From Actinomycetota bacterium (GTDB lineage Bacteria; Actinomycetota; Humimicrobiia; Humimicrobiales; Humimicrobiaceae): 64,000 bases of DNA. Numbering within the stretch: the first letter of the stretch is position 1; every line of letters begins with the position of its first letter. Positions 9,243 to 53,969 of this stretch are shown piece after piece. The stretch is from the NCBI GenBank assembly GCA_051744345.1, contig JBNJCW010000001.1, forward strand, positions 9,498 through 73,497. Reading direction: 5' to 3'. The notes beneath the pieces were generated by a model. The model did no database searches, had not been told where the DNA came from, and saw only the letters and a program-made list of their open reading frames with translations. The position numbers and the translations under genes are program-made.

Positions 9243-9725
9243 ATGAAGTCAGCTAAATTAATGAACCTTATTTTTTTCCTTACGGCAGCAATGATACTGG
9301 TCATGGACCAGTATACCAAGAGCTGGATAAAATCAACCCTGCCGGCTTCGAATTCGATGGAGGTTTTTCCTAATTTATTATACATAACCCATGTAAAAAA
9401 TACGGGCGCAGCTTTCGGCCTCTTCCAGGAAGGCACAACAGTTTTAACCATTATTTCAATGGTGGCAATTGTCCTGATTGTGATAATAAAAATTATGGTA
9501 AAGCTGAACTCCTATTTCTTTAATATTTCACTGGGCCTTATATTGGGCGGCGCCCTGGGAAATCTAATTGACCGTTTTTTTATTGGAGAAGTTACCGATT
9601 TTATCCATTTTGTTTACTTTCCGGTATTCAATGTAGCCGACAGCTCCATAGTTGTGGGCTTTATAATTGTAATCATTCTGCTTTTCAGGGAATTTTTTAA
9701 AAAAAGCGATACTGCAAGTAATTGA
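9243..9725 (+). CDS. lspA: Lipoprotein signal peptidase (signal peptidase II)
   Basis: NTGAAFG and FNVADSSI motifs in a 160-aa membrane protein. The ATG overlaps the ileS stop. Confidence 0.85.
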   Translation: MKSAKLMNLIFFLTAAMILVMDQYTKSWIKSTLPASNSMEVFPNLLYITHVKNTGAAFGLFQEGTTVLTIISMVAIVLIVIIKIMVKLNSYFFNISLGLILGGALGNLIDRFFIGEVTDFIHFVYFPVFNVADSSIVVGFIIVIILLFREFFKKSDTASN

Positions 9726-10717: not shown

Positions 10718-11665
10718 TTAAGTTGCCCTGATTTCCTGCTTCATAAATATTATGTAAGAGAGGGCAAAACATATTATAGCCAAAGCAATTATTGCTATCA
10801 GCTGCGGCCAAACCTGTATAAGGCTTTGTCCCAAAGAGAGAGGGCTTAAGACCATCCTTGCTAAATCTGTGGCCACGAATGCCTGGGGATTAAGCAGCAT
10901 ATGGCCGCCGGTTGGTACCAGCAGCGTAGTAATCGATTCACCAAAAAGGGTAGACGGGGAGACTCTTAATATATTACGTTCAATTACATAGTTGCTTACC
11001 TGCTCAGCAGCTGAGGCATTATCCAATGGAACAACTGTATTAGCTATCGCATTTGCGATAATGGGCAAAAAGATAGCAAGAAAAAGCCAGATAGCTATTG
11101 AGGTAAGGATTGAAGTTGCAGTTTTTTCCATTATAACTGAAAAAAGCATGGAAAGGCCCATCCAGAAAGCCCCGTATATGATGCAGATAATCACAAAGAA
11201 AAATATCCTCAGTATCTCTTCTGCAGAAGGGGGAACACCTATAGATCTAAGCCCTATTCCGGCAATTAAAAAAACTATGCTGGCTATGATTATGCTCAAG
11301 GTGGTAATACCAGCCAGGAATTTGCCGTTTATTACGCTGTCTCTGAATATCGGTTGTGAAAGCAGCCGGGAAAGGTTGCCGCTTCTCCTTTCGCTGTTTA
11401 TGGCATCAAAACCAAATATTATTCCTATGATGGGAATAAACAGGCTGATAAAAGTTATAAATGACGGGAGTATGTCCCCGGATGTAGTAAACAGCCTCAG
11501 GAAAATATTTTTATCCAGGCCGGCTGCTGCTTCCCTTATGTTCTGCAGGGATACATAAACAGCAGATAAACCTGCTACATATACCAATCCCAGCAATATA
11601 ATAAATTTTTTACTGCTGAAATAATCTGTAAGTTCTTTTCTGTATACGGTCAAAATGCTTTTCAT
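10718..11665 (-). CDS. ABC-2 type transporter permease
   Basis: 315 aa, 6-TM topology. Its start lies 2 nt after the upstream ATPase gene stop. Confidence 0.6.
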   Translation of the reverse strand: MKSILTVYRKELTDYFSSKKFIILLGLVYVAGLSAVYVSLQNIREAAAGLDKNIFLRLFTTSGDILPSFITFISLFIPIIGIIFGFDAINSERRSGNLSRLLSQPIFRDSVINGKFLAGITTLSIIIASIVFLIAGIGLRSIGVPPSAEEILRIFFFVIICIIYGAFWMGLSMLFSVIMEKTATSILTSIAIWLFLAIFLPIIANAIANTVVPLDNASAAEQVSNYVIERNILRVSPSTLFGESITTLLVPTGGHMLLNPQAFVATDLARMVLSPLSLGQSLIQVWPQLIAIIALAIICFALSYIIFMKQEIRAT

Positions 11666-11666
11666 G

Positions 11667-12599
11667 CTACTCCTCTTTAAAATATTTTAGGTAAATTTCC
11701 TCCAGGGCATAATCTTTTATGTTCATGCTGGTCAGTATCGAATCGGAGCCGGCTATTATTTTTGAAATCTCGGACCTCACGTCCCTATCGGATATAACCT
11801 GCAGCTTATTTTCCTCTTGCTCTATATCCACAATCTTATCAAGTTTTTTTATGTTATCCAGTAATTGATTGTTGACCTGTGAGACCTCTAGCTCTATCCT
11901 GAACCTTCCTCCGCCAAATAATTCCCTGCCCAGCTGGTCAATCTTTCCTTCCCCAATGAGTTTTCCCCAGGAGAGGATCCCTACCCGGTGGCAGATTTTC
12001 TGGATAAGGTTTAATTGATGGGAAGAGAGGAGAAAGGTAATTCCCTTGGTTTGGTTTAAATTAATTATTGTGTCCAGTATGCTGTTTGCTACCTTTACAT
12101 CAAGGCCTTCCGTTGGTTCATCGAATATAACCAGCCGGGGGTCTTTTATGAGCACATCAGCAATACCCAGCCTTTGTTTCATTCCCTTTGAAAACTGCTT
12201 AACCAGCTGATTCTTATTCTTGGTAAGCCCTACTGTTTCCAAGGCTTCATCTATTTTTTTTGGTATTTGTCTGTAACTTATATTATTCAGTTCAGCAGTA
12301 TAGGCCAGGTTGTCTTTAGCGGTCATATCTTCATAAAATCCTATTTTTTCGGGAAGGTATCCGGTAATCCTTTTTACCTTCAAAGGTTCCCTGGTAGAAT
12401 TAAAGCCGGCTACCATGATCTTGCCGTTGGTTGGTTCTGTAAGGCCCAGAATCATAAGTATGATGGTCGATTTTCCAGCGCCGTTTGGACCCAGGAGCCC
12501 GTATATTTCTCCCTTGTTTATGGAAAGGTTGAGCCCGTCAACAGCCACGGTGCCGTCATATTTTTTAGTAAGATTCTCAGAGATTATTATCTTTTCCAT
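11667..12599 (-). CDS. ABC transporter ATP-binding protein
   Basis: Walker A GPNGAGKST, a FSKGMKQR signature-like motif and Walker B VIFDEPTEGLD, with a roughly 90-aa C-terminal extension. Confidence 0.85.
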   Translation of the reverse strand: MEKIIISENLTKKYDGTVAVDGLNLSINKGEIYGLLGPNGAGKSTIILMILGLTEPTNGKIMVAGFNSTREPLKVKRITGYLPEKIGFYEDMTAKDNLAYTAELNNISYRQIPKKIDEALETVGLTKNKNQLVKQFSKGMKQRLGIADVLIKDPRLVIFDEPTEGLDVKVANSILDTIINLNQTKGITFLLSSHQLNLIQKICHRVGILSWGKLIGEGKIDQLGRELFGGGRFRIELEVSQVNNQLLDNIKKLDKIVDIEQEENKLQVISDRDVRSEISKIIAGSDSILTSMNIKDYALEEIYLKYFKEE

Positions 12600-12603
12600 A
12601 GAA

Positions 12604-13497
12604 TTATCTTCTTCCCAGCCTTACAAAGATTATTGCAACGCCTACGATAACTATAACTATAATTCCAATTCCAACCCAACCCCATACGGTTGGTGTAAGA
12701 ACTGTTACCCTCAGGTCGATTGAATCAGTGCTGTTGTCACTGTTGGCATTAAAGGTCAGCATATAGTCGCCGGCAATGGTTTTTTCTGGCGGTTTTATGG
12801 TTGCAGCTATCTCTTTTGTTTCTCCTGATTCGATTGTTTCTATTTCCTTATTATCAAAATCTACAGTCCATCCTTCAGGCTGGCTGGCGCTAATACTGAT
12901 GTTTTCAATAGATGCAGAACCCCTATTTTCAATTATAAGGTTGTATTTATTGTCTTTTCCTGATGTAACTTCGGTATTGAGCCTTCCTGTTTTTGTACGC
13001 AGGTCTAGCTCATAGGTAGCGGTAATGATTGCTTTAAACTGGGCTACCGCGTTTAAGCCGCTTTCCTCATCTTCCACTATGACCTCTATGTCGTATTCTG
13101 CCGGCTCCATTTTTACAAGGGGTGCCGCTATTATATTCAGGCTCTCTGTTGAGCCCGGCTCAAGCTTTACTGCTGATATTTCAGCTTGTTCATAGCTGGG
13201 CTGTACCGATACGTACCATCCTTCGGGCGCTTCCCAGAGTATGTCAAAAGTTTTGGCCTCGGTACCTACAAACATCAAATCTGCCTTAAACTGAAACTGC
13301 TCTCCAGCCTTTGCCCTTATTTCCGGATAGGATATGTCAAAACTGAGCTCTTCAGGCACTGGCTCTGGTTCCGGCTCTACAGCCTCGTCCTCTTCCTGCG
13401 CAAAAACCATTGCAGGTACTGACATGATAATTGATAGGGTGAAAATGGTCAGAAAAGTTAAAACCAATGTTTTTATTTTCTTGCTTCTGTTATTCAC
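12604..13497 (-). CDS. Exported, C-terminally membrane-anchored protein with an acidic PE-rich linker and NEW3/CARDB-like beta domains
   Basis: Signal peptide, EPEPEPVPEE linker, two repetitive beta-rich segments and a C-terminal TM plus RR. GTG start with an AAGGAG RBS. It is the first gene of an operon with the ABC ATPase and permease. Confidence 0.55.
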   Translation of the reverse strand: MNNRSKKIKTLVLTFLTIFTLSIIMSVPAMVFAQEEDEAVEPEPEPVPEELSFDISYPEIRAKAGEQFQFKADLMFVGTEAKTFDILWEAPEGWYVSVQPSYEQAEISAVKLEPGSTESLNIIAAPLVKMEPAEYDIEVIVEDEESGLNAVAQFKAIITATYELDLRTKTGRLNTEVTSGKDNKYNLIIENRGSASIENISISASQPEGWTVDFDNKEIETIESGETKEIAATIKPPEKTIAGDYMLTFNANSDNSTDSIDLRVTVLTPTVWGWVGIGIIVIVIVGVAIIFVRLGRR

Positions 13498-13555
13498 TTA
13501 ACGGACTCCTTTACTATATATTGATTTTCATCATTAATGCTTTAATGTTTAGAAA

Positions 13556-13584
13556 ATTGTAATGATTTTAAAAATTGATGTCAA
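13556..13584 (-). promoter_or_regulatory. Near-consensus sigma70 promoter (TTGACA-17-TACAAT on the minus strand) for the NEW3-ABC operon
   Basis: The minus-strand reads ctgccTTGACAtcaatttttaaaatcatTACAATttt. The TSS would lie about 50 nt upstream of the GTG at 13497. Confidence 0.55.
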
Positions 13585-13589
13585 GGCAG

Positions 13590-13617
13590 TTTCGCAAAAC
13601 AAGTCTCGCAAAGCAAG
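13590..13617. repeat. Tandem 14-bp direct repeat (minus-strand CTTGCTTTGCGAGA / CTTGTTTTGCGAAA) abutting the -35 element
   Basis: Two adjacent near-identical 14-mers (11 of 14 positions match), read directly at 13590-13603 and 13604-13617. Candidate transcription-factor binding site. Confidence 0.4.
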
Positions 13618-13649
13618 AATAAGTTGGCTATCGGGCCAGGATTAAAAGG

Positions 13650-16223
13650 CTATTTTATTATCTCTATGAATTTTTTCACCAGCTGGGGGTCAAACTGGAT
13701 ACCTGAAAACCTGAGCAGTTCATCCATTGCTTCCTTTTTGGTTACCGGTTTCTTGTAGGGCCTTCCGTTGACCATCACATCATAAGCATCAATGATACTT
13801 ATAATCCTTGAGGTTATGGGTATCTCTGTGCCCTTAAGGCCTTTGGGATAACCGCTTCCGTCCCACCATTCATGGTGGCAGAGTATGCCATTGGCTATAT
13901 GGGAGAGCTGTTTGGATGATTTGGCAATACGGTAGCCTATCTGGGTGTGAGTTTTAACCTTGCCCCATTCCTTACCCGAGAGTTTTGTGTTCTTTTCAAG
14001 TATATCCTCGGGAATGGCAATCTTTCCTATGTCATGGAGGGAGGAAAGCAGAACCAGTTCATCTATCTGATTTGAGTCAAGGCCTATAGACCTTCCCAGC
14101 CTTACCGCCAGCTTCTCCAGCCGGTGGGCATGCTCTTCTGTTTCATTGCTTTTTTCCCAAAGTGACCTTTGCAGGGAGGAAATTATTGAGCTGGATATGG
14201 ATTTTTTTTGTACCAGTTTCTGCCGGTCCATCCTCTTTTCTGCTTCCTTTATTATATCTTCTATTTTCTGCCGGGGATTTTCTTTGGTGGCGATTCCTAA
14301 AGCCAGACTGTTCTGCAGTTTCTTGTCTTTTGTTTTCTCTACCTCTCTTATTATCCTCTGTTTGATGCTTAGAGCATCGGTTCCGCTGGTACTGGAAAAA
14401 AGTATGGCAAATTCATCCCCGCCCCATCTTGCCAGTATATCGCCGTATCTGCAGACACTCCGGAGTAAATCAGCTACCTCTTTGAGCACCTGGTTACCGT
14501 ATTCAAAACCGAAGGCGTCATTGATAAGCTTAAGGCCGTTTATGTCGATTATAAAGAAGGAAAGGGGAAGATACCTTTTATAATCCAGTCTTTTTAACTC
14601 TTCTTCAAAATAAGCGCGGTTATAAAGGCCTGTCTGGTAGTCATGGAATTTAAGGTACTGTATCCTGGTCTGATCCCTGTAGCTCTTAATGGCATTGACA
14701 AAAATATTGCCGGCTACCCTTATAAGTGATTTATCTTCCGTGTTCCAGTCTTTGGTATTCCTTAGGGTTTCAAAGCCAAGACATCCCAGCAGTTTATTAC
14801 CCATATAGAGGGGCAGTATTAACAATGATTTGGTGTTTTTGCTTATTTCTTTCCTGAACCTTTCTTCTGTTTCAGAAAGGTTTTCTAATTCAAACATATC
14901 CTTTATGTCAATTTCCTCAAAACCGGATAAAAATTCAATCAGCCACCAATTTTGTGGAGATTTAATTTCCTCCAGCAGGGGGGATGCAGGCAGGTTGTTT
15001 TTTCTGTATTCCCACAGTTTGTCAATTTTTTTATTCTCCAGTAAAAAAAGATAACCCCTGTCAACACCGGTAAATATTGTTATTTTTTTTAAAGCAGAAT
15101 CAAATTCTTTATTTATATCAAAGCTTGTTCCGGCAAAATTTGCCGATATATTGGAAATTAGTTTAGAGAACTCGTACCTTTCTTTGAGAAAATTTTCAGT
15201 CTTTTTTCTTTCCGTAATGTCCCTTAGCATTATAATAGAAGCAGTTTTTTCTCCGGTGTGGTCTTTATAGTTGAAGGTATCCAGTTCATAAAATTTCTTA
15301 ATTCTTTTATTTTCTTCAACAAACACCTTCTCTATCTCTGTTTTGGGGCCAATAAGAGGCCAGATATCGGTTTTATTAAGACTTAAGCCGACTACATCCT
15401 GTTTTCTGTCAATACCTATTATTTCTTTGGCCAAGGGGTTTATATCCAAAATCCTGTATTTTTTATCGGTTACAAGTATGCCGTCCCTCATGTTTTCAAT
15501 CAGCGCATTCCTGGTAATGGGTACAATCTCCCCGAGCTTTAACCTGGTGATGCCAAGAAGCATAATTATTATGCTGCCGGTAAGGGAAAGGGGGGTGAAA
15601 TCCATATAGTTTACCGGCCCTATATTCAAGAAATAAGCTATATTGGCCGCAATGGGAAGGGTTAATATCATTAGCAAAAATACAGCCTGCCTCTTGTAAA
15701 ACTTTATGGAGGTAGCCAGAAGCCTGATAAGGTAGAAGTAGCTAACAAACATCAGAATATATATATAGGAAACCCATATCCAGAAGAAGAGACCGTAGTC
15801 TTTTCTAAGCAGCAAAAGCTCGGTTGTGGCAATAAGCTCATAGTTTGTCACTATCAGGTTATGGTAGGCATTGGTAAAATCAAGCACAACCCCTGCTGCA
15901 GGAATTATCGACAGCAATAAAATCTTACCCGGGTTTATCTTAGCAGATCTACCCGTGTATTGCAGGGTGAATATAAAAAAGGCTATCGGAACTATAGCGA
16001 TTCCAAATGATGACACCTGGTTAAAAAATATTTTCTGCCCCATACTTTTACTTGCAAGCTCCAGGGTGTTTGAGGCCAGCCAAATAAAGGCGCCGGAAGA
16101 TAGCAGAATTAGTATCCTGTAGTTAAAGGAGGGCCTGTATGCATACACATAGAGAATAAATACCAGTATGCATATGATACCCATTATCATGGGAATGATG
16201 TATGGTGAAAACTGTAATTCCAT
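13650..16223 (-). CDS. Membrane sensor protein: N-terminal 7TM domain-PAS-GAF-GGDEF diguanylate cyclase-HD-GYP phosphodiesterase
   Basis: Seven hydrophobic helices at the N-terminus, RWGGDEF (intact GGDEF), then LHDIGK ... HHEWWDGSGYP (intact HD-GYP). Length 857 aa. Confidence 0.85.
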   Translation of the reverse strand: MELQFSPYIIPMIMGIICILVFILYVYAYRPSFNYRILILLSSGAFIWLASNTLELASKSMGQKIFFNQVSSFGIAIVPIAFFIFTLQYTGRSAKINPGKILLLSIIPAAGVVLDFTNAYHNLIVTNYELIATTELLLLRKDYGLFFWIWVSYIYILMFVSYFYLIRLLATSIKFYKRQAVFLLMILTLPIAANIAYFLNIGPVNYMDFTPLSLTGSIIIMLLGITRLKLGEIVPITRNALIENMRDGILVTDKKYRILDINPLAKEIIGIDRKQDVVGLSLNKTDIWPLIGPKTEIEKVFVEENKRIKKFYELDTFNYKDHTGEKTASIIMLRDITERKKTENFLKERYEFSKLISNISANFAGTSFDINKEFDSALKKITIFTGVDRGYLFLLENKKIDKLWEYRKNNLPASPLLEEIKSPQNWWLIEFLSGFEEIDIKDMFELENLSETEERFRKEISKNTKSLLILPLYMGNKLLGCLGFETLRNTKDWNTEDKSLIRVAGNIFVNAIKSYRDQTRIQYLKFHDYQTGLYNRAYFEEELKRLDYKRYLPLSFFIIDINGLKLINDAFGFEYGNQVLKEVADLLRSVCRYGDILARWGGDEFAILFSSTSGTDALSIKQRIIREVEKTKDKKLQNSLALGIATKENPRQKIEDIIKEAEKRMDRQKLVQKKSISSSIISSLQRSLWEKSNETEEHAHRLEKLAVRLGRSIGLDSNQIDELVLLSSLHDIGKIAIPEDILEKNTKLSGKEWGKVKTHTQIGYRIAKSSKQLSHIANGILCHHEWWDGSGYPKGLKGTEIPITSRIISIIDAYDVMVNGRPYKKPVTKKEAMDELLRFSGIQFDPQLVKKFIEIIK

Positions 16224-38777: not shown

Positions 38778-39236
38778 ATGGATGCTTTGGAAATGATAGA
38801 TAAGATTGAGGAAATGGTGGAAAAGAGTAAGAAACTTCCCTTCTCGTCAAATGCCATAATCAATGAGAATGAAATATACGATCTGCTTGATGAGCTCCGC
38901 AGCGTTTTACCGGAAGAGCTTAAGCAGGCAAGGTGGATTGTAAAGGAAAGGGAGGGAATGATAGAAGAGGCAAAAAGGCAGTCTTTAAGCATAGTAAAAG
39001 AAGCCGAAGAAAGGGGCAGAACCCTGGTTAGCGAAACAGAGGTTTTAAAGAACGCAAACAAGAAAGCCGAAGAACTTATGGCAATGGTTGAAGCCAAGGC
39101 CAGGACCATAAGGCTTGAGGCTGAGGATTACGCAGATGAAAAACTGGCTAATCTGGAAGCAGTCCTGCATAAACTCCTGTCTGCGGTAGAGAAGGGCAGG
39201 GAGCAATTCAAGGCTACCCTCAAGTCAGAAAACTAA
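38778..39236 (+). CDS. Hypothetical coiled-coil protein (ATPase b/E-subunit-like or DivIVA-like low-complexity helix)
   Basis: 152 aa, predominantly a charged heptad-like helix. It occupies the position upstream of rpmF where a YceD/DUF177 gene is usual. Confidence 0.5.
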   Translation: MDALEMIDKIEEMVEKSKKLPFSSNAIINENEIYDLLDELRSVLPEELKQARWIVKEREGMIEEAKRQSLSIVKEAEERGRTLVSETEVLKNANKKAEELMAMVEAKARTIRLEAEDYADEKLANLEAVLHKLLSAVEKGREQFKATLKSEN

Positions 39237-43770: not shown

Positions 43771-44004
43771 ATGGAGAATTTCGAAAAACTGAAGGAAATA
43801 CTTGTTGATGTTTTGGGGGCAAAGGAAGAGGATGTAACCCCGGAAAGCAAGTTTGTGGATGACCTTGGTGCAGATTCTCTTGATCTTGTGGAACTTATAA
43901 TGTCTTTTGAAGACAAGTTTGGTATTGAAATAAGTGATGAGGAAGCTGAAAAGCTGGAGGCAGTCCAGGATGCCTTAAACTACATAGATAAGCATGCAAA
44001 ATAA
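43771..44004 (+). CDS. acpP: Acyl carrier protein
   Basis: [14 protein letters not shown] phosphopantetheine attachment site. Confidence 0.9.
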
Positions 44005-44741
44005 TGAAGGTGTCTATTATTGGAATGGAAGAAGTAGGTGTACTAAGAACAAGAATAAGTCAATGGCTTAAAAGCATAGGTATAGGTACAGAAGATTTAA
44101 AAATATACATACAAAGCCTTACCCACCGCTCTTTTGCCAGGGAAATAAATGTCGAGTCCCGCGGGAACGAGCAGCTGGAGTTTCTGGGGGATAGTGTCCT
44201 CTCATTTATAGTAACTTCCTATCTTTATAAAAACTACGGCAATTATACAGAAGGAAAGCTGGCCAAGATAAGGGCCATTCTGGTAAATGAGAAAACTCTG
44301 GCCAGGATAGCCAGGGAAGTTGGCGTTGATAAAGAAATCCTTTTGAGTGAAAACGAAGAAAGCTGTCAGGGCAGAAGCAAGGATTCTATACTGGCTGACA
44401 GTTTTGAAGCTTTTATTGGCGCCATTTATATCGACAAAGGGATTGAGTTTGCAAGTAACTGGCTTCTGGAAAGGTTTGAAGACAAGATAGAAGAAAAGGT
44501 ATTTAGGCCAAAAATAACAGACTACAAGACCTATCTTCAGGAAGCGGTACAGGCAGATTATGCCAAACTGGTGAAGTACAAAATGATAAAGTCAGACGGG
44601 CCGGATCACCAGAAGCTTTTCCACTCAGTGTCTATGATTGATAATAAAATTATTGGCAGGGGAGAAGGCAGGAGCAAGAAAAAATCAGAACAGGCAGCTG
44701 CAAAAGATGCATTGGTAAAATTATTTAATATAGAAGTTTAG
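44004..44741 (+). CDS. rnc: Ribonuclease III
   Basis: ERLEFLGDSVL catalytic motif and a C-terminal dsRBD. Confidence 0.9.
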   Translation: MKVSIIGMEEVGVLRTRISQWLKSIGIGTEDLKIYIQSLTHRSFAREINVESRGNEQLEFLGDSVLSFIVTSYLYKNYGNYTEGKLAKIRAILVNEKTLARIAREVGVDKEILLSENEESCQGRSKDSILADSFEAFIGAIYIDKGIEFASNWLLERFEDKIEEKVFRPKITDYKTYLQEAVQADYAKLVKYKMIKSDGPDHQKLFHSVSMIDNKIIGRGEGRSKKKSEQAAAKDALVKLFNIEV

Positions 44742-44750
44742 GTCGGGAAA

Positions 44751-46961
44751 TTGTATTTAAAGACTATTACTCTCCGCGGTTTTAAATCATTTAAATCTAA
44801 AAGCACTCTTACCTTTGAGCCGGGCATAAGCGTGGTTGTGGGCCCTAACGGCAGCGGCAAAAGCAATATTGCCGATGCAATATCCTGGGTTTTAGGGGAA
44901 CAAAGCCCCAAATCCCTTAGGGGGAGCAGCATGGGTGATGTAATTTTTAGAAACAGGCAGGAAGAGATGGGGATAGCAGAAGTATCCCTTGTTTTTGATA
45001 ACCGGGACAGGACCATAGATCTTGATTTTAGTGATGTGAGGATTACGCGCAGGGTTTATTTGGAGGGCGGCAGTGACTACTTTATAAACAGCTCTCCCAC
45101 CAGGCTTATGGATATCCAGGATTTGCTTGCTGCCACCGGTATAGGCAAGGGGCTTTATACAATAATAAATCAGGGACAGATAAATGAAATAGCAATGCTC
45201 AAACCGGTTGAAAGAAAATTGATAATTGATGAAGTGGTGGGTATCGCCAAGCACAAGAACAGGAGGGATAAGGCCCTTTTAAAGCTGGGAAGGGTAAAAG
45301 AGGATATTGGCCGTATTGATGATTTGCTGGAAGAGATAAAGAGGACCATGGTTCCCCTGGAAGTGGAAGCCGGCAAGGCCAGGGAGTATTCAGGGGTATT
45401 AAACCAGCTAAAGAGTGAGGAGATATCCTTTTTTATGAGTGAGTTGAACCGGCTTAATGAAGCCTGGAAAGAAAAGAACGAAGAAGAGGCAAGCCTGAGG
45501 AAAAAGCAGGAGGAATCAGGGGAGGAACTGGCCAGGCAGACAGAAAAGTATAATAATTACAAAAATGAAATCTCAGAGAAACTCAGCCAGTACCGTTATT
45601 GGGAGAATACGGTCAGCAGGCTGGAACATGAAACAGGGCGCCTTGATAATATGCTGGAGCTTATCTTTAGCAAGGTTAATGTATTTTCCACCCTGTCTAA
45701 TATGTTTGATAGAAAGACAGCAACCCCGGAACAAAAAAAAGGTGATTCCGTATACCGGAGGCTGAAGGATTTACAGATGCTGGTGCATGATTATACTGGC
45801 AAGGTTGCAAAGATTCTTTCCGGATACAATAGAGCCGGAGAAATTGACAGCCAGGCAAGAGATATCCACCAGAAAATTAACCAGCTGCTGGATTTATTCC
45901 GAGAGGACATGCAAAAAGAACAGAAAAAAGAAGAAAGGCAAAAGATAAACCTTGTATTCAGGCAGGCCTGCATTAAGAATTTAAAAAAAGCCAAAAAACT
46001 TTTAGGGATTGTAGAGGCTTTCAAAAAGAGGGCGCACAGCCTGGAAGAAAGAATTTATCCGCATTTTAAGGAGGTAAAAAAAGATGTTGAACAGGAAAGG
46101 GCATTAATTGATCAGCTGGGAAAAAAACTTAATGAAATAAGGATGGAGAATAACAGCATAGAAAACAAGCTTTACAGGCACAAGCTGGATAAGGAACAGA
46201 TAAAGGAAAAAACCGAAAACATAACTACCTACATTGTGGACAACTATAATCTTTCTATTGACTACATACTTAAAAATTACGAGGCCTCCGGGGATATTGA
46301 GAGGAGCCAGAGGAATATAAGCAGGCTTAAAAAAAAGGTTAAGGAATTCGGGAACATAAACCCCAATGCATCCATTGAATATGAGAGGATAAAAAAAAGG
46401 TACGATTTTTTAAACAGCCAAAGAAATGACCTGGTGGAAAGTAAAGGCAAGCTTGAAAAATTAATAGAGGATGTAGAGAAGCAGATAATGGAGGCTTTCC
46501 TGCAGAAATTCGAGCAGATTAATAAAAGTTTTAGCTATTATTTTAAGATACTGTTCCCTGTTGGGGAGGGAGAACTCATGCTGCTGTCAGAAGATGGCGG
46601 CAGCGAGTTTGGAGTTGACCTTAAAGTAGATATAGGTAATAATAAATTTGTTCCGTTATCATTGTTATCAGGTGGTGAGAAGACTTTAGTTTCCATAGCT
46701 TTTTTATTTTCCATATTTTCAACAAATTTATCCCCATTTTATGTTTTTGATGAAGCAGATGCTGCGCTGGATGATGTAAATATTGACCGGTTCCTGTCTC
46801 TGGTAAGAAAATTTGCTGAAAGGCAGCAAATAATACTGATAACCCACCAGAAAAAAACAATGGAAATAGCAGATACTATTTATGGGGTTAGCATGCAGTC
46901 AGACGGGGTATCAAAGATAGTGTCTGAGAAGATAAGTGATAATTATGCAAAAACTAATTAA
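44751..46961 (+). CDS. smc: SMC-family chromosome partition protein, unusually short (736 aa) with no recognisable hinge
   Basis: Canonical SMC N-head (LRGFKSFKSK...VVGPNGSGKSNIADAISWVLGEQS), C-head LSGGEKTLVSIAFLFSIF and Walker B FYVFDEADAALD. Canonical rnc-smc-ftsY position. TTG start. Confidence 0.75.
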   Translation: MYLKTITLRGFKSFKSKSTLTFEPGISVVVGPNGSGKSNIADAISWVLGEQSPKSLRGSSMGDVIFRNRQEEMGIAEVSLVFDNRDRTIDLDFSDVRITRRVYLEGGSDYFINSSPTRLMDIQDLLAATGIGKGLYTIINQGQINEIAMLKPVERKLIIDEVVGIAKHKNRRDKALLKLGRVKEDIGRIDDLLEEIKRTMVPLEVEAGKAREYSGVLNQLKSEEISFFMSELNRLNEAWKEKNEEEASLRKKQEESGEELARQTEKYNNYKNEISEKLSQYRYWENTVSRLEHETGRLDNMLELIFSKVNVFSTLSNMFDRKTATPEQKKGDSVYRRLKDLQMLVHDYTGKVAKILSGYNRAGEIDSQARDIHQKINQLLDLFREDMQKEQKKEERQKINLVFRQACIKNLKKAKKLLGIVEAFKKRAHSLEERIYPHFKEVKKDVEQERALIDQLGKKLNEIRMENNSIENKLYRHKLDKEQIKEKTENITTYIVDNYNLSIDYILKNYEASGDIERSQRNISRLKKKVKEFGNINPNASIEYERIKKRYDFLNSQRNDLVESKGKLEKLIEDVEKQIMEAFLQKFEQINKSFSYYFKILFPVGEGELMLLSEDGGSEFGVDLKVDIGNNKFVPLSLLSGGEKTLVSIAFLFSIFSTNLSPFYVFDEADAALDDVNIDRFLSLVRKFAERQQIILITHQKKTMEIADTIYGVSMQSDGVSKIVSEKISDNYAKTN

Positions 46962-47817
46962 AAATTTTAACTATTTTATAGGCAAAATAAAAAATAATGA
47001 CCGGGATGTCTGGGATGAGCTTGAAGAGCAGCTGGTTTTAAGTGATGTGAATGCAGCCTGTGCGCAAAGGTTAATTGGTGAGATAAAATCCGAGATCTAT
47101 TCCAGTAAATTAAGCGGCGGGGATGCTGTAAAAGGGCTGCTTAAGCAAAAGATAGCGGAAATGCTTTCCAGCAATAATGAAGGTATGCTGAAAGTCTCAG
47201 GCCAAAAGCCCACGGTTTACCTGATAGTGGGGGTAAACGGGGTAGGCAAAACATCCACTCTGGCTAAAATAGCCAATATGTTGCAATGTCAGGGAAAAAA
47301 AGTTTTAATTGCAGCTGCAGATACATACAGGGCGGCGGCGGCAGAACAGGTACAATCATATGCAGAAAGGATGGGGGTTGAGGTTGTACGGCACCAGAGG
47401 AATTCCGATCCGGGGGCGGTTGTCTATGACAGTATTGAAAAAGCAGCAGCCAGGGACATAGACTTTGTTCTGGTGGATACGGCCGGGAGGATGCAGACCT
47501 CCTATAACCTGATGGAGGAACTTAAAAAAATCAAAAGAGTGGTAAATAAAAAGATAGGCAGGGAACCTGATGAAATACTGATGGTAATAGATTCTACTAC
47601 CGGCCAGAATGCGATAATGCAGGCAAATACCTTCAATAAAGCTTTAGGCCTTAGCGGCATAGTCCTTACAAAGACTGATGGGACCTCCAAAGGAGGTATT
47701 ATCCTAAGCTTGAAAGAGCAGCTGGGCTTGCCCATAAAACTGGTAACCTTCGGGGAAAAGCTTGAGGATATATCCCTTTTTGACCCTAAAAATTATACTG
47801 ATATGCTGATAAACTGA
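46936..47817 (+). CDS. ftsY: Signal recognition particle receptor FtsY (NG domain only)
   Basis: GVNGVGKTSTLAKIA and DTAGR motifs. Overlaps the smc 3' end by 26 nt. The start may be the ATG at 46945. Confidence 0.9.
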   Translation: MIIMQKLIKNFNYFIGKIKNNDRDVWDELEEQLVLSDVNAACAQRLIGEIKSEIYSSKLSGGDAVKGLLKQKIAEMLSSNNEGMLKVSGQKPTVYLIVGVNGVGKTSTLAKIANMLQCQGKKVLIAAADTYRAAAAEQVQSYAERMGVEVVRHQRNSDPGAVVYDSIEKAAARDIDFVLVDTAGRMQTSYNLMEELKKIKRVVNKKIGREPDEILMVIDSTTGQNAIMQANTFNKALGLSGIVLTKTDGTSKGGIILSLKEQLGLPIKLVTFGEKLEDISLFDPKNYTDMLIN

Positions 47818-53549: not shown

Positions 53550-53969
53550 ATGGGACTGTTTAGAAGAAAAAAAGTTGAAAAACCAAAAAATCCGCTGGGA
53601 ATAGCTGTTTATAAATTCGATAATATCCTTAAGGGGAAACTGGGGAAAATAGTTAAAGCGATGCAGGCTGGAAAAACCCTGAACCCGTCCCGGACAAAAG
53701 CGGTATTGGATGAATACTTCTACAAACTAGATTATATACTGGAGGACATATCCAAGGAAAACCTGAAAATAGATTACCGGTCTGACAAGGTGAGGTATAA
53801 GGTTATAGGGATGGTCCGGGAGCTGAAGAACTACCTCCAGGCAGCAGCAGAGTTGGAATTTGACTACAAAAAGATTGAAAGAAAGCAGATTGGAAGCCCC
53901 GATAGCATTCTTTTAAAAAGGGAGAAGTTAAAAAAAGACTTAAAAGACATACAGAGCGATTATGTTTAA
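53550..53969 (+). CDS. Hypothetical soluble protein (139 aa, lysine-rich, no recognised motif)
   Basis: Intact ORF with a GGGGTTGGGG purine-rich RBS-like stretch upstream. It sits between dprA and xerC/D, where topA is found in Bacillus-type synteny. Confidence 0.45.
   Translation: MGLFRRKKVEKPKNPLGIAVYKFDNILKGKLGKIVKAMQAGKTLNPSRTKAVLDEYFYKLDYILEDISKENLKIDYRSDKVRYKVIGMVRELKNYLQAAAELEFDYKKIERKQIGSPDSILLKREKLKKDLKDIQSDYV

Follow-up and report, generated by a model that had tools for sequence, protein, structure and literature searches.

The hinge counts as a defining feature of structural maintenance of chromosomes (SMC) proteins; the roles proposed for it are those of a gate for DNA entry, a site of DNA binding and, more recently, a gate for the bypass of obstacles. 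Here we analyze an smc gene that encodes a protein of 736 amino acids (aa) devoid of this domain, located in a stretch of 64,000 nucleotides (nt) from an Actinomycetota bacterium of the family Humimicrobiaceae, hereafter the window (positions 9,498 to 73,497 of the forward strand of contig JBNJCW010000001.1, NCBI GenBank assembly GCA_051744345.1). Two features of the closest described systems, the nature of the distal dimerization element and the length of the coiled-coil arms, have been addressed experimentally. The B. subtilis variant Smc(Zh), in which the hinge is swapped for the unrelated zinc hook of Rad50, supports normal growth, and Mini-Smc proteins with arms shortened to specific lengths are still functional, with head engagement rising as the arms shorten (Burmann 2017, PMC5344682). 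In the same study, natural Smc arms display length modes of 163 (minor), 238, 341, 423, and 515 aa, as obtained with a pipeline that demanded a recognizable hinge.

SMC proteins that lack the hinge altogether have also been reported. A paper in Environ Microbiome from 2025 (preprint 2024; PMC12153180) describes an abundant oceanic clade of hinge-less SMCs in open-ocean metagenomes, assigned to the 'class Actinomycetes' without a resolved lineage, lacking CxxC motifs and not co-occurring with regular SMC in single-cell genomes; the paper gave no analysis of synteny, tip anatomy or arm length. The concept of a hinge-less SMC is therefore already published, which limits the novelty of the present case. 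What is added comprises (i) a named lineage, (ii) orthology by gene order, and (iii) a concrete tip motif amenable to mutation. In our reading, which we hold to be probable, the window gene is the genuine chromosomal smc of Candidatus Humimicrobiia, having lost the hinge and about half of each arm strand, with protomers that would associate distally through the ends of their arms.

Orthology and the ATPase Head

The window gene is a positional and sequence ortholog of smc. The open reading frame (ORF) occupies exactly the interval given in the original prediction, on the + strand, at the canonical position between rnc and ftsY that is also seen in the loci of relatives. The order plsX-acpP-rnc-smc-ftsY-ffh-rpsP is retained in ENA, Logan, and NCBI assemblies at 52-64% identity, the window gene order is common to all three family members whose flanks were inspected (L001, L003, and L004), and the homologs P0088 (780 aa) and P0006 (736 aa) lie in the order plsX-acpP-rnc-smc-ftsY-ffh in independent assemblies.

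The protein displays a split ABC ATPase head with the complete motif set, including every motif on which the two head halves had been recognized in the original prediction (Walker A, FKSF, signature, Walker B, and D-loop). The N-terminal half comprises the FKSF motif (residues 11-14), the Walker A motif GPNGSGKS (residues 31-38; nt 44841-44864), R57, and the Q-loop (residues 140-143), and the C-terminal half comprises the signature LSGGEK (residues 639-644; nt 46665-46682), the Walker B motif FYVFDE (residues 663-668) and the D-loop DAALD (residues 670-674), together nt 46737-46772, and H699; the catalytic motifs are invariant across the family.

The family assignment relies on several independent profiles and structures. 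Pfam SMC_N matches residues 2-721 (3e-66), the head crystal structures of B. subtilis Smc are matched at 4e-101 in a PDB sequence comparison, and the top PDB match of the full-length model by Foldseek is 5xei, the Pyrococcus Smc head with coiled coil and joint. The NCBIfam SMC equivalog TIGR02168 scores 624.6 bits, above its cut-off of 567.35, and the protein stays below the cut-offs of TIGR02169 (374.8 against 729.4), RecN (TIGR00634, 38 bits against 407.85), and the best Rad50 model (81 bits against 700). As a side observation on annotation, many family members carry only the label 'AAA family ATPase' in NCBI metagenome-assembled genomes (MAGs), though the window protein passes the SMC equivalog.

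These scores bear directly on whether the protein could instead be a specialized SMC-like paralog, of the RecN/SbcC/Rad50 repair type or the LmuB/JetC/mad3 defence type, with the true condensin encoded elsewhere, an explanation that we consider improbable. Its hinge-less head-plus-coiled-coil architecture resembles RecN and Rad50, the heads lie on a long branch, a second SMC may be present in the genomes, and PADLOC returns mad3 (212 bits, a 374-position profile) and LmuB (87 bits); nevertheless, the PADLOC matches are restricted to the generic head and do not amount to the full-length match, accompanied by defence neighbors, that would mark a defence SMC-like ATPase such as LmuB, mad3, or JetC. 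No nuclease, methylase or other defence gene lies beside smc in the window or in the three family loci, all three of which show the housekeeping rnc-smc-ftsY-ffh slot. The CxxC zinc hook of Rad50 and SbcC is missing from a protein whose single Cys is C407, the equivalog cut-off is passed where those of RecN and Rad50 are failed, and each Humimicrobiia assembly gave a single match in a scan of GTDB species genomes, which is weak evidence against a second SMC. The RecN-like architecture put forward in the original prediction holds in the loosest sense, that of a head joined to a short coiled coil with no hinge, and fails both at the level of sequence (38 bits against 408) and at the tip, which is unlike the apex of RecN or Rad50.

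Conservation, given here and below as mean column conservation in a class alignment of 30 species, follows a gradient from the heads (about 0.8; 0.82 for the N-terminal half and 0.78 for the C-terminal half) through the necks (about 0.75; 0.76 for the N-neck, compared with 0.49 for the mid-arm, and 0.73 for the C-neck) and the arm-end segment (0.67-0.70) to the arms (0.45) and an apical mini-hairpin (0.36), with a mean of 0.59 for the joint. As judged from the conservation of heads and necks across these species, smc is under strong purifying selection, and the intact ATPase motifs together with the conservation gradient argue for an active SMC ATPase. A decaying or non-functional smc remnant in reduced genomes, as might be suspected from the accelerated divergence of the heads and from the missing hinge, a domain held to be essential, is very improbable given that about 30 species have an intact ORF, the catalytic motifs are invariant, heads and necks retain a mean column conservation of about 75-82%, and the tip has a conserved motif of its own.

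Absence of the Hinge Domain

The hinge is genuinely absent, not just divergent. A Pfam search of the 736-aa product, one of the checks proposed in the original prediction, matched SMC_N and gave no match to SMC_hinge (PF06470) even at E<=10. A hinge hidden Markov model (HMM) of 257 positions, built from 113 canonical SMCs and run unfiltered (--max), detected the short SMCs P0131 (822 aa, 4e-27), P0140, P0162, and P0216 as positive controls and gave no match in the window protein, in its 120 homologs, or in 34 GTDB orthologs, among which the top score was 5 bits; precomputed hinge matches are likewise missing among the 119 non-identical homologs listed. The two AlphaFold models display helices only between residues 166 and 601, with no central globular domain in between; the full-length AlphaFold2 model, obtained from a 120-sequence alignment, shows a predicted local distance difference test (pLDDT) score of 75, rising to 85-92 in the arms. 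The description of the protein as hingeless, made from its letters, is thereby borne out by profile and model alike.

Two candidate substitutes were considered and dropped: (i) a degenerate Gly-rich hinge, given that the segment between residues 160 and 580 contains only 16 Gly, which are unclustered, and (ii) a zinc hook at the apex, given that the protein has no CxxC.

Distribution across Candidatus Humimicrobiia

The short hinge-less SMC is common to the whole class Candidatus Humimicrobiia (Actinomycetota). A search of 5.8 billion proteins listed 120 homologs from NCBI, JGI, ENA, and Logan assemblies, one of which, P0001, is an identical protein on a 93.6-kb contig of an NCBI MAG named 'Actinomycetota bacterium'. 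The other 119 homologs listed are all 730-790 aa long and 50-80% identical, with in-frame insertions and deletions, so that the comparison with the nearest relatives suggested in the original prediction returns the same short architecture throughout. Clustering at 50% identity reduces the whole family to one library representative (797 bits); the next score, 451 bits, belongs to the first of the ordinary SMCs, which measure about 1,180 aa. In about 34 species, the scan of GTDB species genomes disclosed a relative that is full-length yet encoded in only 2.2-2.5 kb, the complete ORFs among these carriers comprising 730-816 aa. The named carriers belong to three families of the class Candidatus Humimicrobiia, namely Humimicrobiaceae, Hydromicrobiaceae, and Calidifonticultoraceae, and the named sources, by MAG and isolate names, include subsurface, sediment, hot-spring, and fen environments.

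This distribution bears on the question, raised in the original prediction, of whether about 1.2 kb of repetitive coiled-coil DNA has collapsed during assembly or binning, the true gene being a canonical smc that encodes about 1,180 aa. Such an artefact could be expected only from the usual SMC length of about 1,150-1,200 aa and from the MAG origin of the contig, and it is hardly credible in view of the following evidence: (i) more than 115 independently assembled homologs, spanning 50-80% identity, share the short architecture with in-frame indels; (ii) the gene recurs in the GTDB species genomes, with one short copy on a 982-kb contig, and P0006 is present on 8 contigs from different samples; (iii) the window smc is free of tandem repeats and of direct repeats that exceed 27 nt; and (iv) the region of the would-be junction bears its own conserved motif. 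Class-wide independent assemblies and the absence of repeats refute the collapse. The other possibility named in the original prediction, a genuinely minimized condensin, is the one that orthology, purifying selection and class-wide sharing favor, as far as it can be tested.

Other Hinge-Negative SMC Proteins

The loss of the hinge in true smc orthologs appears recurrent. Among the 149 closest SMC representatives, 14 are negative with the hinge HMM, and the nearest head-domain neighbors of these 14 are mostly hinge-bearing SMCs at 60-78% identity, which makes the loss look recurrent. P0163 (858 aa), the representative of a 17-member multi-source cluster (L085:6001-8577), and P0128 (916 aa), from Actinomycetota MAGs (L086:6001-8751), are two of the well-supported cases; they belong to unrelated clusters and both occupy the slot rnc-(1 gene)-smc-ftsY...ffh-rpsP-KH-rimM-trmD. 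The Humimicrobiia protein is the shortest hinge-less form found in this analysis.

The hinge-negative lengths fall into groups of 730-816 aa in Humimicrobiia and of 838-945 and 1003-1129 aa in other representatives (P0121-P0269), and by eye they look roughly as would be expected from an arm periodicity of about 100 aa (Burmann 2017) minus the hinge. A separate observation concerns the heads (residues encoded in 44751-45245 and 46476-46958), which in Humimicrobiia share no more than 50% identity with any other SMC representative, compared with the 60-78% that is common between canonical SMCs of that set; the long head branch accompanies hinge loss in this class.

Structure of the Arm and Tip

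Between the head halves, the protein forms an antiparallel coiled-coil arm with a head-proximal joint (AlphaFold2 helices 166-318 and 384-601) at about half the canonical length (Table 1). The two-stranded arm measures about 155-165 aa (about 22 nm), with an N strand of about 153 residues and a C strand estimated at about 168 residues on the assumption that residue 318 lies opposite residue 408 or so. In a profile alignment onto canonical SMC, the coiled coils align degenerately, with only the outer regions of about 310 and 275 residues reliably colinear. The joint carries an invariant Y499, with D497 and N500 conserved in 90% and I495 in 87% of the species.

Table 1. Features of the smc locus, with positions in the window and residues of the 736-aa protein
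Feature	Residues	Window positions	Strand	Evidence
rnc (RNase III)		44004..44741	+	ORF; orthologs in L001, L003, and L004 match Pfam Ribonuclease_3 and dsrm
smc ortholog, hinge-less and short-armed	736 aa	44751..46961	+	TTG start; ORF, TIGR02168, Pfam SMC_N
N-terminal half of ABC ATPase head	1-165	44751..45245	+	45% identical to B. subtilis Smc head N-half
N-terminal arm helix (neck 166-215, then ascending strand)	166-318	45246..45704	+	AlphaFold2 helices 166-273 and 275-318, pLDDT 85-92
Arm-end motif L304-x2-S-K-x-N-V-F-S-T-L-x2-M-F-D	304-320	45660..45710	+	(near-)invariant in 120 homologs
Linker 1, disordered	319-333	45705..45749	+	pLDDT <50 in both models
Apical mini-hairpin: helix 334-355, turn 356-360, start of return helix	334-381	45750..45893	+	AlphaFold2 tip model, pLDDT 86
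Descending arm helix	384-499	45900..46247	+	AlphaFold2; continuous 361-467 in tip model
Joint region, IxDxYNxSxxY motif	494-535	46230..46355	+	AlphaFold2 breaks 500-502, 510-515, and 533-539
C-terminal neck (536-575) and C-terminal head half (576-736)	536-736	46356..46958	+	Head 40% identical to B. subtilis Smc C-half
ftsY		46936..47817	+	ORF; orthologous loci match Pfam SRP54_N and SRP54

The central region, which the original prediction had described as ordinary charged coiled coil at residues of about 300-420, is not of that kind: it holds a conserved motif, a loop, a turn, and a conserved Cys. The arm-end motif is the best conserved segment outside the head, compared with about 0.45 in the adjacent arm; L304, K308, F312, T314, and M318 are conserved in at least 90% of the species and S307 in 87%. 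The linker that follows varies in length, with low-complexity insertions of 15-90 aa in relatives in the class alignment, and a second linker site, at residues of about 385-393, accepts low-complexity insertions of 0-45 aa; in the window protein, both linkers are as short as anywhere in the family, of which it is thus the minimal form. The descending helix contains Cys407 (nt 45969-45971), conserved in 90% of the species, and Y436-P437.

The family and class alignments and a dedicated AlphaFold2 model of residues 258-468 agree on a tip that comprises the arm-end segment (residues 297-320, placed opposite 400-428 by helix lengths), a flexible break, the helical mini-hairpin, and the return helix. 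The arm-end helices 297-320 and 400-428 carry 2.2-2.6 large-hydrophobic positions per heptad, compared with 1.3-1.7 in the mid-arm; for the N-arm end, the 2.6 large-hydrophobic and 2.3 conserved positions per heptad compare with 1.3 and 0.4 in the mid N-arm. A second stripe on the arm end is formed by the conserved small polar residues S307, N310, T314, and N317. Such a combination of hydrophobic and polar positions would be expected for helices in a bundle of more than two helices.

Structural comparison of the tip with the PDB by Foldseek returned no matches at E<=1e-3, with neither the RecN nor the Rad50 apex among the structural matches, and a tip HMM found no significant match in the 149 other SMC representatives. 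One match of the tip HMM, in P0245 (E=1e-4), was rejected; it falls in the neck coiled coil and reflects composition noise.

Proposed Mechanism and Significance

In the proposed scenario, the Humimicrobiia lineage would have lost a hinge measuring about 170-245 residues, along with roughly half the length of each coiled-coil strand. It would have kept an ABC head that is complete and presumably competent for catalysis, together with the neck and joint, an antiparallel arm of two strands, and an all-helical tip. The protein would still be an ATP-driven SMC and would probably bind a kleisin through its neck and C-terminal cap, both of which are conserved. Kleisin contacts B. subtilis Smc on these two surfaces (3ZGX, 4I99), and their conservation in Humimicrobiia fits continued binding. 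Distally, the two protomers would be joined where their conserved arm-end helices pack into a bundle of more than two, and docking of the tethered mini-hairpin, either in cis or in trans, may contribute. The outcome would be a smaller ring or rod, with the arm ends serving as a functional substitute for hinge dimerization; by analogy, the tolerance of B. subtilis Smc to the zinc-hook swap makes an alternative dimerizer plausible.

A rather unlikely but serious alternative is that the protein is a true Smc ortholog with no distal dimerization at all, its protomers being joined by ATP-dependent head engagement and kleisin bridging or by arm-arm zipping, and the arm-end motif either capping the coil in cis or binding something else, be it a loader, DNA, or a substitute for the hinge that is supplied in trans. 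The poor conservation of the apical hairpin would agree with this alternative, as would a tip that is a plain two-helix hairpin with no known dimerization fold and an arm-end hydrophobic face that the tethered mini-hairpin could cover in cis; the exposed conserved polar residues of the second stripe are nevertheless hard to explain by a cis cap alone. To our knowledge, a distal dimerization element is present in all characterized SMC, Rad50, MukB, and RecN proteins, which speaks against its complete loss. The engineering work speaks to both sides: the enhanced head engagement of Mini-Smc variants with shorter arms favors this alternative, but what was found is that the fold of the element is irrelevant, not that the element itself is dispensable (Burmann 2017).

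Returning to a genuine smc with distal association through the arm ends, several points weigh against it or temper it. The arm register, with residue 318 placed opposite about 408, is deduced from helix lengths and not from coordinates, and the case for dimerization at the tip consists entirely of conservation and hydrophobic patterns. HMMs for ScpA and ScpB, derived from PDB seeds and run on six-frame ORFs, found no scpA or scpB in the window or in 84 loci (1.53 Mb), a scan that says nothing on genome-wide presence because these genes are not expected beside smc and the canonical actinobacterial loci included were negative too. A second, canonical SMC may be encoded elsewhere in Humimicrobiia genomes, and the long head branch could reflect an altered function.

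More tentatively, it is possible that hinge loss represents a recurrent route in the smc of deep-branching Actinomycetota, of which the Humimicrobiia protein would be a minimal motor of about 22 nm, joined by a new metal-free helical interface (L..SKxNVFSTLxNMF plus the Cys407 helix) and maybe latched in trans by the mini-hairpin.

The family matters in several respects. A whole bacterial class that keeps smc under apparently strong selection with no hinge and with half-length arms supports the dispensability of the hinge fold (Burmann 2017). At about 85 kDa per protomer, the protein offers a small natural model for structural and single-molecule study of the minimal SMC requirements, and annotation pipelines that demand a hinge would miss or discard Humimicrobiia SMCs. 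If the helical arm-end interface is real, the class would provide a natural test of which SMC activities, including loading, DNA entrapment, and loop extrusion, need the hinge and long arms.

Genomic Context

The smc gene starts 9 nt after the stop codon of rnc, directly downstream of plsX-acpP-rnc, and is followed by ftsY-ffh-rpsP-KH-rimM-trmD-rplS. Its 3' end overlaps the longest ftsY ORF (GTG start) by 26 nt (46936-46961), with an internal ATG four codons downstream of the GTG as the alternative ftsY start. The orthologous pair overlaps in L003 and L004 as well, and this retention suggests translational coupling.

Elsewhere in the window, two ORFs have no Pfam match, one of 152 aa at 38778-39236 (+), between coaD and rpmF/acs-like genes, and one of 139 aa at 53550-53969 (+), between dprA and xerC; the position of both is kept in L001, L003, and L004, where they are also unannotated. 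In the interval 10718-16223, four genes in a row lie on the minus strand, although the window is otherwise plus-strand, and a local loss of the positive GC skew coincides with this block. Two of these genes are ABC-transporter-like by eye, one encodes a CARDB/NEW3-domain protein, and the block also encodes an 857-aa 7TM-PAS-GAF-GGDEF-HD-GYP signaling protein.

Comparison with Known Systems

Compared to canonical B. subtilis Smc, the Humimicrobiia protein preserves the ATPase motifs, heads that are 40-45% identical, the neck, the joint motif, and the intramolecular antiparallel coiled coil, and it shares with canonical bacterial Smc the rnc-smc-ftsY gene position and the passing of the TIGR02168 equivalog cut-off. 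It differs in being about 450 residues shorter, in having no hinge, in an arm of about 155-165 aa in place of about 340 aa, and in a helical hairpin tip with a clade-specific motif. RecN, Rad50, and SbcC show the same association of an SMC-like head with a hinge-less antiparallel coiled coil; nevertheless, the Humimicrobiia protein misses the cut-offs of these families widely, has no CxxC hook, displays an SMC-type head by sequence and fold, and lies in a housekeeping and not a repair gene context.

The oceanic hinge-less clade, compared by description given that its supplements hold no sequences, has in common with the Humimicrobiia family an SMC-type head, an antiparallel coiled coil, the absence of both hinge and CxxC, and an actinobacterial affiliation, and differs in the open-ocean habitat described for it, the named sources of the latter including subsurface, sediment, hot-spring, and fen samples. 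Smc(Zh) and Mini-Smc likewise represent SMCs with a non-hinge tip and/or shortened arms; both, however, are artificial, and Smc(Zh) relies on a strong and defined Zn-hook dimerizer, whereas the Humimicrobiia protein has no metal-binding motif and its tip dimerizer is putative. The Humimicrobiia arm length falls near the minor 163-aa mode of natural Smc proteins. A further comparison is with the short SMC P0131, which has short arms as well and is colinear with the family from residue 1 to 310 and again over about 275 residues at its C-terminal end, but retains a hinge (residues 321-523) that the hinge HMM detects at 4e-27 and Pfam at 48 bits. The hinge of P0131 stands where the Humimicrobiia protein has its tip module, which identifies the replacement of the hinge, and not the short arms, as the unusual feature of this family.

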